From Hyphomicrobiales bacterium (GTDB lineage: Bacteria > Pseudomonadota > Alphaproteobacteria > Rhizobiales > Xanthobacteraceae), in the NCBI GenBank assembly GCA_003169835.1, contig PNAI01000034.1, positions 4,982 to 68,981 on the forward strand: 64,000 nt of DNA, in the 5' to 3' direction. Position numbers and translations under genes: made by a program. Positions within the stretch are counted from its first letter, which is position 1. Each line of letters starts with the position of its first letter. The notes beneath the pieces are model-generated. The model saw only the letters and a list, made by a program, of their open reading frames with translations. It was not told the DNA's origin and made no database searches. This document shows positions 4,836 to 13,410 of this stretch, one piece after another.

Positions 4836-5741
4836 GTGGGTGAGGGCGAATTGAAAGGCTGGACGGTCGCTGTGCTCGGCGGTGATGTCCGGATGCTCGA
4901 ACATATGCGGCTGGCTCGGCTCGCCGGCGCGAAGGTTCAGCACTACGGCTCGATTTCAGGGGCTGATGAGGCCGCCGGTCAGCCGCAAGCAGCAAATCTT
5001 GCCGCCGCGGTCAAAGGTGCGCGCATCATTTCGTGCCCTATTCCCGGCCTTGGCGCCGACGATGAGCTTTACGCTAAATACACGACCGAGAAGCTGCGCC
5101 TGACCGCTGACGTGCTCAAATGCGCCGCGCCAAACGCCATGCTGCTTACCTGCTATTCAACGCCAAAGCTGGATGAATGGGCGAAAACCGCTTCCGTAAC
5201 GATCATTCCCTACGGCGAGGACGATGCGCTTTCGATTCTGCACGCAGTCCCAACCGCGGAAGGCGCAATCCGGATCGCGATCGAGAATACCGACGACACG
5301 CTGCTGGGGATGGATGTGCTGTGCGTTGGACTCGGCCGCGTTGGCGTCAGCGTTGCGCAGGCGTTCGAAGGGATGAAGTCGCGTGTCTCGCTCGCCGCGC
5401 GCAATCCGGCGCAATTGGCCCGCGCCTGGGCGATGAACACGGTCCCGATTGAATTGCGCGATCTCAAAGCGCATGTCGGCAAATTCGGCCTGATCGTAAG
5501 CTCGACCTCGGGCCGCGTCCTCGACAAGGACCTGCTCGCGTTGACACGGCCGGACGTTGTGATCATTGATTTGTGCTCGCCGCCAGGCAGCATCGACTTC
5601 GAAGCCGCCAAGGCGCTTGGGCGTAAGGTGATCTGGGCCCGAGGTCAGGCCGGACGCGCGCCACGCCGAGCCGGCGCCGATGAATGGCAGGTGCTGATGC
5701 GCATCGTGCGCGAACGTACGCCTGAATTGAAGCGCGCGTGA
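4836..5741 (+). CDS. Dipicolinate synthase subunit A (DpaA/SpoVFA)-like NAD(P)-binding dehydrogenase
   Basis: Aligns from memory along its whole length with Bacillus DpaA: VAVLGGDVRMLEHMRLA, VPTAEGAIRIAIENTD, VGLGRVGVSVAQAF, IIDLCSPPGSIDF. GTG start. The stop overlaps the next gene (5738/5741). Confidence 0.75.
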   Translation: MGEGELKGWTVAVLGGDVRMLEHMRLARLAGAKVQHYGSISGADEAAGQPQAANLAAAVKGARIISCPIPGLGADDELYAKYTTEKLRLTADVLKCAAPNAMLLTCYSTPKLDEWAKTASVTIIPYGEDDALSILHAVPTAEGAIRIAIENTDDTLLGMDVLCVGLGRVGVSVAQAFEGMKSRVSLAARNPAQLARAWAMNTVPIELRDLKAHVGKFGLIVSSTSGRVLDKDLLALTRPDVVIIDLCSPPGSIDFEAAKALGRKVIWARGQAGRAPRRAGADEWQVLMRIVRERTPELKRA

Positions 5742-6592
5742 CTGTCACCGCGACCGTCAAGCCCGAAAGGGAAGTGGAGAGGGAGATGGCGCCCGCCACC
5801 AGTGTGCTCGAAGCCCGCAATGTCTACAAAGTGTTCGTGGCGCGCGGAGGCAAGGCGAGAACGGCGCTGCGAAATGTCGAGCTGACAATCCGGCGCGGCG
5901 AGTTTGTCTGCCTCGTTGGGCCATCGGGCTGCGGCAAATCAACGGTACTCAACATGTTTGCTGGGCTGGTCACGCCGTCCGACGGCACGATCCTACACGA
6001 CGGCCGCACTATCACCGACGTCAACACGCACGTCGGTTATGTGACGCAGGATGATAATCTCCTGCCTTGGCGCACGGCGCTGGGGAATGTCGAACTCGCG
6101 CTCGAATGCAAAAGTGTCGGCCGCGCGGAGCGACGTGAGCGAGCCTTCGACTATCTCGCGCGTGTCGGCTTGAAAGGCAATGAAGAACTCTACCCGCACG
6201 AATTGTCCGGCGGCATGCGCAAGCGCGTGTCGATCGTGCGCACTCTCGTCGACGACAGTGTCGATGTCATTCTTATGGACGAGCCATTCGGCCCGCTCGA
6301 TGCACAGACGCGCCTGATCTTGCAGGACGAATTGCTGCGGCTTTGGCAGGGAACTGGACGCACCATCGTCTTCGTCACCCACGATATCGTGGAAGCCATC
6401 GCCTTGAGCGATCGCATCGCGATCTTCACTAGCGTGCCGGGCTCGATCAAGCAGGTTCGCGATGTTACGCTACCGCGCCCGCGTGATGTTTTTCATATTC
6501 ATGAGACGCCTGGATTCTCGACTATATACGATGCGATCTGGAACGATCTGCGCGAGGAAATCCTGAAAGGGCGAGACGATGCCGGCGCGTGA
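5738..6592 (+). CDS. ABC transporter ATP-binding protein (NitT/TauT family)
   Basis: Walker A GPSGCGKST, signature LSGGMRKR and Walker B ILMDEPFGPLD. Overlaps both neighbours. Confidence 0.9.
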   Translation: MTVTATVKPEREVEREMAPATSVLEARNVYKVFVARGGKARTALRNVELTIRRGEFVCLVGPSGCGKSTVLNMFAGLVTPSDGTILHDGRTITDVNTHVGYVTQDDNLLPWRTALGNVELALECKSVGRAERRERAFDYLARVGLKGNEELYPHELSGGMRKRVSIVRTLVDDSVDVILMDEPFGPLDAQTRLILQDELLRLWQGTGRTIVFVTHDIVEAIALSDRIAIFTSVPGSIKQVRDVTLPRPRDVFHIHETPGFSTIYDAIWNDLREEILKGRDDAGA

Positions 6593-11285: not shown

Positions 11286-11295
11286 GAGTTCGCGG
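11286..11295. repeat. Left copy of the exact 10-nt direct repeat GAGTTCGCGG
   Basis: An identical decamer recurs at 13280..13289. It may be a target-site duplication or att remnant, or it may be chance. Confidence 0.35.
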
Positions 11296-11339
11296 CCGAG
11301 ATTCATAATCAGAGTTGCGGCATAATTTTTTCCAATGAG

Positions 11340-11423
11340 AAATTCCCTGTTTCTTGCCATTCGACGTACAAAAAATCCCTGATATGCGCCTAGAAACTCC
11401 CTGTTCCATTGCTCAGGGAATTT
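11340..11423. repeat. Cluster of AAAWTCCCTG decamers (11340-49, 11372-81 and 11394-403 forward; 11414-23 inverted)
   Basis: Read directly: aaattccctg, aaaatccctg, aaactccctg, and cagggaattt as the reverse complement. The last two form a 10-nt inverted repeat with a 10-nt spacer. Confidence 0.6.
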
Positions 11424-11496
11424 GGCTGCAAACCATTGAATTCACCGGCTGATGAAGCGTCAAAATTGCAGCGGAATGCCAAATTTCGAGAAATTC

Positions 11497-11520
11497 CCGG
11501 TATTATGGCGCAAACGCCAC
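11497..11520. repeat. Left arm of the 24-nt inverted repeat CCGGTATTATGGCGCAAACGCCAC
   Basis: The reverse complement of 13208..13231 is CCGGTCTTATGGCGCAAACGCCAC, a 23/24 match. It contains an internal TGGCG-CAAA-CGCCA hairpin. Confidence 0.8.
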
Positions 11521-11587
11521 AAGCAATTCCAAGTTAGCCATCTTAACTTTCAGACAAACCGGGAATGTGCCGTCACTGGTTTTAACC

Positions 11588-11604
11588 ATGGCGCATAATG
11601 CCGG
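11588..11604. promoter_or_regulatory. Third, inverted partial copy of the repeat (ATGGCGCATAATGCCGG) overlapping a -10-like CATAAT; possible operator/promoter of the cassette operon
   Basis: Its reverse complement CCGGCATTATGCGCCAT matches the start of the left arm apart from 1 gap and 1 mismatch. CATAAT lies at 11594-11599, the RBS AGAGG at 11613-17 and the ATG at 11623. Confidence 0.35.
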
Positions 11605-11622
11605 TTCGTTCTAGAGGTTAAA

Positions 11623-12012
11623 ATGAGCGAACCGCATGTTGTTTCCGCCCTCCGTGCCAAGCGCGCCGAGGTCAGCGGTGATATTCGAGACCTAGAAAAC
11701 AAGATCAAACGCCAGCGGGCGAACCTTGTCCATATTGACGCGACCATCCGCGTGTTCGCACCAGGTCTAAACCCCGACAGCATCGCACCGAAACGCCGCT
11801 ATCAGCGGTCGCGCTATTTCGCCAAGGGCGAGATATCACGAAGCGTACTTGACGCGCTCCGCAAAGCCGCGGGACAACCGATTAAAGTGTCTGCCATTGT
11901 GGCTGACCTTGTCGCTGTAAAGGGCTTTCAATCCGACGATACTGCGCTGATGGAATCTGTCACCGGGAGGGTTCTCACGGTACTCCGGCGGCTCCATGGC
12001 TATAACCTCTGA
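11623..12012 (+). CDS. Hypothetical 129-aa protein, with a coiled-coil-like N-terminus and a winged-helix-like C-terminus
   Basis: Good RBS. ALRAKRAEVSGDIRDLENKIKRQRANLVHIDATIRVF looks heptad-like. The C-terminal ISRSVLDALRKAAGQPIKVSAIVADL looks wHTH-like. I recall similar proteins in alphaproteobacterial islands, but this is unverified. Confidence 0.65.
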   Translation: MSEPHVVSALRAKRAEVSGDIRDLENKIKRQRANLVHIDATIRVFAPGLNPDSIAPKRRYQRSRYFAKGEISRSVLDALRKAAGQPIKVSAIVADLVAVKGFQSDDTALMESVTGRVLTVLRRLHGYNL

Positions 12013-12232
12013 AAAGGAATGGGCGGAACGGGCGTCCGCATTCTTAAAACACAAGCTTAGAGAGTCTGAGGTAACCTATGTCGAGCTGGCGAAGCGCCTC
12101 AAAAAACACTGCCATAAGGAAACGGAGGCATCTATTACAAACAAGCTGGCGCGCGGCACGTTTGCAGCAACGTTCTTCCTCGCCTGCCTTGCGGCGCTGG
12201 AATTGGACGGTGTGGCGCTAGAGGAAATCTAG
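11996..12232 (+). CDS. Small 78-aa HTH-like protein (resembles DUF6471, from memory)
   Basis: Overlaps the upstream gene by 17 nt. YVELAKRLKKHCHKETEASITNKLARGTFAATFFLACLAALE matches my recollection of the DUF6471 pattern (…ISRG.FTA.FFLQCL…). Confidence 0.6.
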   Translation: MAITSEKEWAERASAFLKHKLRESEVTYVELAKRLKKHCHKETEASITNKLARGTFAATFFLACLAALELDGVALEEI

Positions 12233-12379
12233 CTCGACCTAGTTGCAATCGGGTGTGAAGCCGTCACACTGGAAGATATTTTAAAGCCTAATTACGGACC
12301 TAAATCCAACTGCAAAACCGATGAATAAGCCGCTGGCGATCCCCGCCAGAAATCCGCAAAACATTAGCCACGCACTGTC

Positions 12380-13123
12380 ATGCCGAGTCGGAAGATGGAC
12401 CTTTTCAATATTTGGCTCCCCATCATTGGGGGAATCCTTTTGGGAGCAATCGCAGTCGGCGCTTGGTATGCTGGAGACAAATTGATCGCCATATGGTGTG
12501 GATTTTTTGGTGTTGTTTGTTTCCTGCTCCTCGCTGCACTTCAATTCCACGAGAACGTTATCTTGGAGCGGCAAGGGGCCATCAAAATTAGCACTGCTCC
12601 AGAACCCGATAAAGCGCCGGTACAAACAAATTTCGAAGCCGAACGAGCGTTCGTTTTCCTTAACTCTTTTGAGGTGCATCTTCTCGGTAACATCGTGCGC
12701 GTGATGCCAAAATGGGAAAATAGCGGGCCAACTCGCACCAAAGACATGCGCAGCCGGGTTAGCTGGAAATTCTTCCCCGGCGCGCCGCCATCCGATTTCC
12801 CCTATCCTGATCTGGATGGCATGGGGCAACCAGATACATCGCCGGAAGAACGGCCCGCTTTTGTCGGGCCTAAATCTATGACCTTTGCCTTTCCCCTGGA
12901 TATTCCAATCGTGTTGATAGAGCACGTCCGAGATAAACAGGGACAAATTCTTGTTTGGGGATGGACTGAATATAACGACGTTTTTGACGGAACGCTTCGA
13001 CATAGAACCGAATTCTGCAATGAACTTGCTGTGCTCGGCTTCAAAATAGCCAACGCCGATCAGGCAGCTATCAGCGCCGCAATATCCTTTCCCATGTGCG
13101 GGCCGCATAATTCCGCAAATTAA
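12380..13123 (+). CDS. Hypothetical 247-aa membrane protein (2 N-terminal TM helices plus a domain of about 190 aa from an unknown family)
   Basis: TM1 is LFNIWLPIIGGILLGAIAVGAWY and TM2 is LIAIWCGFFGVVCFLLLAALQF. Amino-acid composition is natural (…VWGWTEYNDVFDGTLRHRTEFCNEL…). It is co-directional with the two small genes. An alternative ATG lies at 12395. A fully overlapping antisense ORF exists (see the rejected list). Confidence 0.55.
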   Translation: MPSRKMDLFNIWLPIIGGILLGAIAVGAWYAGDKLIAIWCGFFGVVCFLLLAALQFHENVILERQGAIKISTAPEPDKAPVQTNFEAERAFVFLNSFEVHLLGNIVRVMPKWENSGPTRTKDMRSRVSWKFFPGAPPSDFPYPDLDGMGQPDTSPEERPAFVGPKSMTFAFPLDIPIVLIEHVRDKQGQILVWGWTEYNDVFDGTLRHRTEFCNELAVLGFKIANADQAAISAAISFPMCGPHNSAN

Positions 13124-13198
13124 GATCGCGGATAACAAAAGCCATTCAAACTTTCTCACCGGGCTCCCCTCCCGACCTTATGTCGTTAGCGCCTGAGG

Positions 13199-13241
13199 AA
13201 ATTTCCCGTGGCGTTTGCGCCATAAGACCGGAAATTCCCTG
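13199..13241. repeat. Right-flank repeat block: an AAATTTCCCG variant, the right arm of the inverted repeat, and an AAATTCCCTG decamer (13232-41)
   Basis: Read directly. GAAATTCCCTGT at 13231-42 is identical to 11339-50. Confidence 0.6.
13208..13231. repeat. Right arm of the 24-nt inverted repeat (GTGGCGTTTGCGCCATAAGACCGG)
   Basis: 23/24 reverse-complement match to 11497..11520. Confidence 0.8.
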
Positions 13242-13279
13242 TATTTTTCCCTATTATCAGGAACTTCGATAGCGGAGAC

Positions 13280-13289
13280 GAGTTCGCGG
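13280..13289. repeat. Right copy of the 10-nt direct repeat GAGTTCGCGG
   Basis: Identical to 11286..11295. It is followed by a 9-bp GC hairpin at 13286-13306. Confidence 0.35.
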
Positions 13290-13410
13290 TGGACTGCGTC
13301 CACCGCCACGCACTTGTGAGCGTCGTTTTTTCCGTCTTGGGATGATCGCGCACCTCGTCGCGGAAAACCACGCATTGCCTTGCTGCAGGTTCCGGCGGCT
13401 GACAATATGA

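Follow-up and report, generated by a model that had tools for sequence, protein, structure and literature searches.

An internally deleted copy of an ISNha5-group insertion sequence

We analysed a stretch of 64,000 nucleotides (nt) of contig PNAI01000034.1 (positions 4,982 to 68,981; Hyphomicrobiales bacterium), called the window below, in which three small genes, here named g1, g2 and g3, lie between two ABC-transporter operons. The interval 11498-13230, which holds these genes, is very probably a non-autonomous, internally deleted copy of a transporter insertion sequence (IS) of the ISNha5 group in the IS1595 family. An earlier note on this DNA, made from the sequence alone, had proposed a toxin-antitoxin, abortive-infection or superinfection-exclusion module. 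The block is an ordinary mobile-element relic, a defective new copy of an already known IS group, rather than a novel module for toxicity or defence. Thus, the most "system-like" block of the window is a decayed IS, and its apparent operon design is a deletion scar. The features of the element and its surroundings are as follows (IRL and IRR, left and right inverted repeat; TM, transmembrane; ORF, open reading frame; aa, amino acids).

11333-11497, left part of the pre-existing intergenic target, with further GAAATTCCCTG motifs
11490-11497, left target duplication GAAATTCC, identical to the right copy
11498-13230, the insert, 1,733 bp, bounded by the terminal repeats and the 8-bp target duplication
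11498-11521, + strand, IRL CGGTATTATGGCGCAAACGCCACA, the same 24-nt repeat that stands, perfect, around a 4.6-kb transposase-encoding element in locus L017
11623-12012, + strand, g1-delta, truncated accessory gene, 129 aa versus about 148 aa in homologues
11988-11998, + strand, internal deletion joint, where g1 breaks off at about codon 124 and meets the DNA 2-3 nt upstream of the g2 ATG
11996-12232, + strand, g2, DUF6471 helix-turn-helix (HTH) protein, 78 aa
12380-13123, + strand, g3, two TM helices and a C-terminal beta-sandwich, 247 aa
12281-13159, - strand, 292-aa antisense ORF, a shadow frame covering all of g3
13207-13230, - strand, IRR CGGTCTTATGGCGCAAACGCCACG (minus-strand reading), matching IRL at 22 of 24 positions in the CGGT...ACA register or at 23 of 24 in the register of the earlier note
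13231-13238, right target duplication GAAATTCC, identical to the left copy
13231-13312, conserved non-coding target sequence of about 85 nt with CAGGGAA repeats, outside the element, holding the right-hand GAGTTCGCGG

The empty site

The empty site was located by a scan for near relatives of the M20 peptidase encoded upstream of the element. In metagenome contig L174 the peptidase is 100% and the downstream permease 99% identical to those of the window, and the intergenic region is that of the window minus 11498-13238, at 99% identity and with GAAATTCC present once. Since L174 is empty while all 15 contigs with an identical g1 protein have the occupied form of the locus, the insertion is polymorphic within the species. 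Read from these alleles, the event shown is an insertion of the kind that a DDE transposase would make, at GAAATTCC within a CAGGGAA-repeat sequence, with 8 bp duplicated. The repeat arms are CGGTATTATGGCGCAAACGCCAC, the ends of the 1.7-kb block have also been given as CGGTATTATGG, and IRR has a mismatch at position 5 of an otherwise nearly invariant CGGTA.

The empty site and a GC content of 52.1%, against 59.9% for the whole window, bear out the idea of a discrete, foreign, lower-GC insertion between inverted repeats. The hand GC counts behind that idea (0.60, 0.43, 0.50 and 0.68) were exact, and the three co-directional ORFs with their 17-nt overlap lie where they had been placed. The extent of the unit had to be changed, because the block had been drawn at 11286-13289 and the real unit is 11498-13230 with an 8-bp GAAATTCC duplication. 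The outer 10-nt direct repeat GAGTTCGCGG does occur in exact copies at 11286 and 13280. It is nevertheless not a boundary or a target duplication, because the empty-site allele still has the two of them, where a single one had been expected; GAGTTCGCGG occurs five times in the window.

The block was said to have no recombinase of its own, and this holds: an ORF with Zn_ribbon_IS1595/DDE_Tnp_IS1595, which relatives with the same ends have, was sought in the whole window and found neither in 11498-13230 nor elsewhere in the 64 kb. Alone the copy would be immobile, and it would be movable only with a cognate transposase in trans. Promoter and terminator scans gave no signal above shuffled expectation, and a search for plasmid relatives of the whole block gave just one 63-nt chance-like match.

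Relatives with the same ends

A scan with the 18-mer TTATGGCGCAAACGCCAC, one genome per species, found the ends in at least 119 loci or genomes, almost all of them from Alphaproteobacteria. In the end-bearing loci conservation starts exactly at CGGTA, and the sequence outside is unrelated. The ends observed read CGGTATT; those of the ISNha5 group we take to be CGGnnTT, with sizes of presumably 3.4-7.9 kb, as in ISfinder. Paired inverted ends were present in 20 cases, 15 of which have a perfect 8-bp duplication. These paired-end elements are 0.7-6.3 kb long overall and eight of the 20 are without a transposase; at least three of these short forms, in L084, L098 and L119, keep perfect duplications, and the one in L098 is little beyond a g3-like gene. 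The 24-nt repeat of the window brackets the 4.6-kb element of L017 and also those of L033, L063, L067, L072, L079, L086, L111, L127 and L129. A g1 homologue that is 73% identical to g1 of the window (L014-L017) lies in a 4.6-kb unit together with an IS1595-family transposase and a DUF6471 gene.

The layout of the family was derived by tblastn and iterated hidden Markov models (HMMs) over the end-bearing loci, with these counts:

Transposase: tblastn, 50 loci; iterated HMM not applied
g2: tblastn, 47 loci; iterated HMM not applied
g1: tblastn, 31 loci; iterated HMM, 49 loci
g3 superfamily: tblastn, 5 loci; iterated HMM, 29 loci

The order in intact elements is IRL, g1 reading inward from a position 50-110 nt inside IRL, variable cargo, the transposase on the opposite strand, a divergent g2, a g3-like gene and IRR. 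In loci that carry a transposase, g2 lies on the opposite strand, with about 100-130 bp between it and the start of that gene. The trio does co-occur in other genomes, as had been suggested, since homologues of g1, g2 and g3 are found together in end-bearing loci. The diagnostic end CGGTATTATGGCGCAAACGCCAC, the 8-bp duplication and the fixed layout should help in annotating this widespread alphaproteobacterial IS group.

The cargo between g1 and the transposase differs from element to element; in the dprA-inserted element of L079 it is a 281-aa protein (5205-6050, - strand) with a weak, sub-threshold phosphoribosyltransferase match (E = 0.0023). Two IS ends stand head to head, exactly 8 bp apart, in L020 (~3450/3458; GGAATTTT) and in L040 (3006/3042; CGTTTGCG), a pattern that suggests a later insertion into the target duplication of an earlier copy. 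The end 18-mer is also present in 22 predicted viral or prophage contigs of IMG/VR (L196-L217), in three of them as paired ends. For an annotated Rhodovastum plasmid with a relative of the transposase, the names of the neighbouring genes were uninformative.

The transposase and the IS family

The placement in the ISNha5 group was tested on the transposase of relatives (L017), the window copy itself having none. The relatives' transposase carries PF12762 (E = 8.8e-37) and PF12760. Over about 120 columns aligned with the published reference fragments (PMC8101967, S2 File), the L017 transposase is 45-50% identical to ISNov3, ISBos1 and ISNha5 at 72-96 bits, and it scores no more than 42 bits against the ISNwi1, ISSod11, IS1595, IS1016, ISH4 and ISPna2 representatives. 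Members of the IS1595 family make an 8-bp target duplication and have a transposase with a Zn-finger or Zn-ribbon and a DDE domain (PMC8101967). The part of PMC11891212 that cites Siguier 2009 describes ISNha5 as a transporter IS with transcription-regulator passenger genes. The elements studied here agree with that group in that relatives with identical ends encode a Zn-ribbon and DDE_Tnp_IS1595 transposase, have an 8-bp duplication and, where they bear the transposase, measure 3.5-6.3 kb and hold additional genes, some of them for HTH regulators. They differ in that the window copy is 1.7 kb long and without a transposase, and in that the relatives' transposase is only about half identical to the references, a figure that applies to the published fragments. 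Literature searches on ISNwi1/ISPna2 and on dprA together with IS1595 found nothing relevant.

The g1/g2 overlap as a deletion joint

The similarity between the window and L017 ends at 11954 in g1 and restarts at 11994, just before g2 (L017 positions 597 and 2632). At the joint, g1 ...CGG CGG CT directly abuts CC ATG GCT of g2, and a codon-level comparison shows that the native GGAGAG Shine-Dalgarno sequence of g2 is missing in the window copy. The homologues of g1 (n = 143) are mostly 144-148 aa long; in the alignment the window g1 ends after ..VLRRL and has lost the conserved tail KRGxVxKSGTSRNAxWxL. Modelled with AlphaFold (pLDDT 87.8), a full-length homologue has a helix at residues 4-45, a winged HTH and a hairpin at 130-143, so that the lost tail corresponds to the beta-hairpin wing of a winged HTH that follows a 42-residue N-terminal helix. 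As these alignments show, an internal deletion of about 2 kb took out the cargo and the transposase, truncated g1 and joined it to the start codon of g2. The "overlapping regulator pair" is therefore the scar of this deletion. The overlap had been taken for a design, a view that does not agree with the relatives, in which 1.5-3 kb, including the transposase gene, separate g1 from g2.

The 78-aa protein g2 had been likened to DUF6471, and it does match this Pfam family (PF20075) end to end (E = 2.9e-20; 72.4 bits against a gathering cut-off of 26.8). In the literature searched no paper mentions DUF6471, and its constant position facing an IS1595-family transposase is not described there; that position gives this orphan family a context. 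For g1 there was no match in Pfam, NCBIfam, PADLOC or PHROGs, and Foldseek gave generic winged-helix matches only. A sequence search of solved structures gave nothing significant for g1 or g2. In intact elements g2 probably represses transcription from the divergent promoter of the transposase. The g1 protein is presumably a dimeric DNA-binding accessory factor, possibly a target selector.

Several points weigh against reading the block as a deleted ISNha5-group element. The support is wholly comparative, and neither this copy nor another member of the family was seen to transpose. The deletion joint is confined to one locus, which leaves a move of the deleted form in trans unproven. The closest full-length relative, L017, is without a target duplication. 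The window g3 is unrelated in DNA to the gene of L017 in that slot, and for this reason no single intact parent is identified. The host genome was seen over 64 kb only, and a cognate transposase may lie elsewhere in it. The roles given here to g1, g2 and g3 are putative.

Recurrent targets and the role of g1

Two genes account for about a third of the neighbours of the ends (46 of 144), and in each the same nucleotide positions are hit in different species. In dprA the insertion point follows ..WLRLIRSDNVGP| (..NVGP) and accounts for 23 ends (L019, L021, L022, L048, L050, L051, L057, L063, L068, L076, L079, L093, L101, L127 and others). The other 23 ends are in a GT2 glycosyltransferase gene, after ..NFYNANENW| or at ..SLETL|DYP. 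The insertions in both genes are recent, because the rebuilt reading frames run through the insertion point without a break. Insertions at one site come in both orientations. Other recurrent targets are the 3' end of a tRNA and the CAGGGAA sequence (the window, L017, L096, L132, L032 and L020).

The normalised similarity of the elements was compared within and between target classes with 2000 permutations of the labels, a test that ignores shared ancestry:

g1: same target 0.41, different target 0.13, reached in 0 of 2000 permutations
Transposase: same target 0.78, different target 0.76, reached in 13 of 2000
g2: same target 0.56, different target 0.51, reached in 72 of 2000
g3: same target 0.063, different target 0.048, reached in 33 of 2000

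The g1 clade therefore tracks the target, a correlation that would fit a swappable target selector. A rival explanation, to which we give nearly an even chance, is that g1 and g2 are mere repressors of the transposase and that target preference resides in the transposase itself. It agrees with the invariably divergent arrangement of g2 and transposase over a short shared intergenic region, with the regulator function ascribed to ISNha5 passenger genes in the portion of PMC11891212 cited above, and with the occurrence of both orientations at the same site, which is unlike Tn7. It does not account for the permutation result, in which the transposase hardly differs between same-target and different-target pairs whereas g1 differs threefold and no permutation reaches its value.

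We tentatively put forward, as the more doubtful of these proposals, that ISNha5-group elements are site-specific IS whose target is chosen by the g1 beside IRL. If this is the case, different g1 clades would steer the same transposase to one exact position of dprA, to two GT2 positions, to a 3' end of a tRNA or to the repeat with CAGGGAA occupied here. An IS with one transposase would then divide its labour in a TnsD-like way, g2 and g3 being further conserved accessory genes; this is a family-level lead of interest to transposon biologists if confirmed experimentally. The likeness to TnsD/TniQ of Tn7 is one of working only: an accessory DNA-binding protein beside one end varies together with a conserved target in the chromosome, and the identical nucleotide of a conserved gene is hit in many species. 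In sequence and fold, g1 is unrelated to TnsD/TniQ. Unlike Tn7, the elements studied here have a single DDE transposase of another family and a duplication of 8 bp instead of 5 bp, and they insert both ways and disrupt dprA instead of inserting downstream of their target gene.

Is the 1.7-kb form a mobile cassette?

Mobile insertion cassettes (MICs) are non-autonomous IS derivatives (as defined in PMC3129680), an example being MIC231 of Bacillus cereus. Like these and like miniature transposable elements with inverted repeats (MITEs), the window copy has IS-type inverted repeats and a target duplication that flank genes, and no transposase. The 1.7-kb form could be a working cassette that was brought to this site in its deleted form by a transposase in trans and is kept for a benefit that g3, with g2, gives the host. 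The two ends and the 8-bp duplication have stayed intact, the perfectly duplicated transposase-less elements described above (among them L084, L098 and L119) offer a precedent, and the g3 ORF is intact with homologues under purifying selection. We nevertheless consider a working cassette unlikely. The joint sequence GGCGGCTCCATGGCTATAACC was found only at this locus, in 8 of the 195 loci and at the same site in all of them, and in no viral contig, whereas copies at other sites would be expected of a MIC or MITE and were not found among these loci. The truncated g1 and the lost Shine-Dalgarno sequence of g2 resemble decay and not design, IRR has its mismatch in CGGTA, and there is no cognate transposase within 64 kb. 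The scar in g1/g2 suggests a one-off deletion and not a propagating cassette.

The g3 gene and the defence-module proposal

The two hydrophobic N-terminal helices ascribed to the 247-aa protein were found. In the AlphaFold model of g3 (pLDDT 86) they are followed by a linker and a beta-sandwich. There was no match to g3 in Pfam, NCBIfam, PADLOC or PHROGs, and the model had no match in the PDB at E < 1e-3. By sequence, the solved structures matched were designed coiled-coil or helical-repeat chains on the N-terminal helical part only (best E = 4.7e-4), and the beta-sandwich domain had no relative in that search. In BFVD the model is matched best by a 'Transmembrane protein' from Rhizobium phage RHEph01 (E = 3.7e-6), which is uncharacterised. 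ORFs of the g3 superfamily occupy the same position, at the IRR end, in 29 loci. Closer homologues, out of 30 homologues of g3 in all, lie directly downstream of transposases from another IS1595 subgroup that is closest to the ISNwi1 references. The g3 product is probably a membrane-anchored protein that is recurrent IS cargo.

Several public annotations of this locus call the 292-aa antisense ORF in place of g3. Among homologues that are 38-48% identical, the differences at codon positions 1, 2 and 3 are 0.35-0.44, 0.29-0.39 and 0.60-0.65, with 0.35, 0.36 and 0.64 as one set of values. Because the differences concentrate at codon position 3, the + strand is the coding one. Antisense protein alignments across g3 score 2-4 times below the sense alignments, and together these results rule out the antisense ORF as a real gene. 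Its frame stays open only through the lack of TTA, CTA and TCA codons in g3. The same homologues have equivalent stop-free antisense frames, and these three codons are absent or rare there. Annotators should therefore be aware that g3 is often called on the wrong strand.

In L002-L006 a close g3 homologue is the sole passenger of an element with inverted repeats of about 25-36 nt, in L190-L192 a g3 homologue has neither g1 nor g2 beside it, and in Roseiarcus one adjoins a polymorphic IS5-family insertion. An ISPna2-type end relic at 13172-13208, considered for the shared CCTTATGTCG, was rejected, being one short match; the L003 transposase is nearest to the ISNwi1 group.

That g1 and g2 form a regulator or antitoxin-like pair controlling g3 as a membrane effector in an undescribed toxin-antitoxin, abortive-infection or superinfection-exclusion module is highly improbable: two small DNA-binding-type proteins do precede a 2-TM protein, the best viral match of the g3 model is a phage transmembrane protein and a mobile element carries the three genes jointly in other genomes too, but the adjacency and overlap of g1 and g2 are unique to the deleted copy (elsewhere the transposase intervenes and g2 faces it), the window g1 has no wing, no PADLOC, PHROGs, NCBIfam or toxin Pfam family is matched, and g3-family genes also occur with a transposase alone or without g1 and g2. 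Small overlapping HTH genes followed by a membrane protein call for a check of relatives before a defence module is read into them.

The target region and neighbouring sequence

In genomes unrelated to one another, copies of the CAGGGAA sequence that are 77-84% identical adjoin IS ends, namely in L017 (117-198), L096 (3683-3761), L032 (2851-2935) and L020 (162-242). L132 has a more diverged copy and L034 (479-555) an IS-free one. The consensus of the approximately 85-nt sequence is GGTGGCGGTGGACGCAGTC..GCGAACyCGTCTC..AAATTCCCTGCTAACAGGGAAAAGAACAGGGAATTT. The idea that the insertion had targeted an RNA gene or a tRNA was rejected, since neither the window nor the alleles without an interruption, L174 and L034, gave an Rfam match, and no tRNA was found. 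This sequence is possibly REP/MITE-like (REP, repetitive extragenic palindromic) or the end of another element.

On the left side the motif GAAATTCCCTG is over-represented. A flank in metagenome contig L195 (249-443) is 86-88% identical to window positions 11333-11528 and has the same GAAATTCC|CGGTA junction; the element in L195 has a full-length g1 of 148 aa that is 81% identical. Since the DNA upstream in L195 is unrelated to that of the window, the left flank is itself a dispersed sequence. On the other side of the element, the mechanical ORF of the downstream ABC permease starts at TTG 13411 (592 aa). Public calls give 576 aa (13459), so that the real intergenic gap is somewhat longer than had been assumed.

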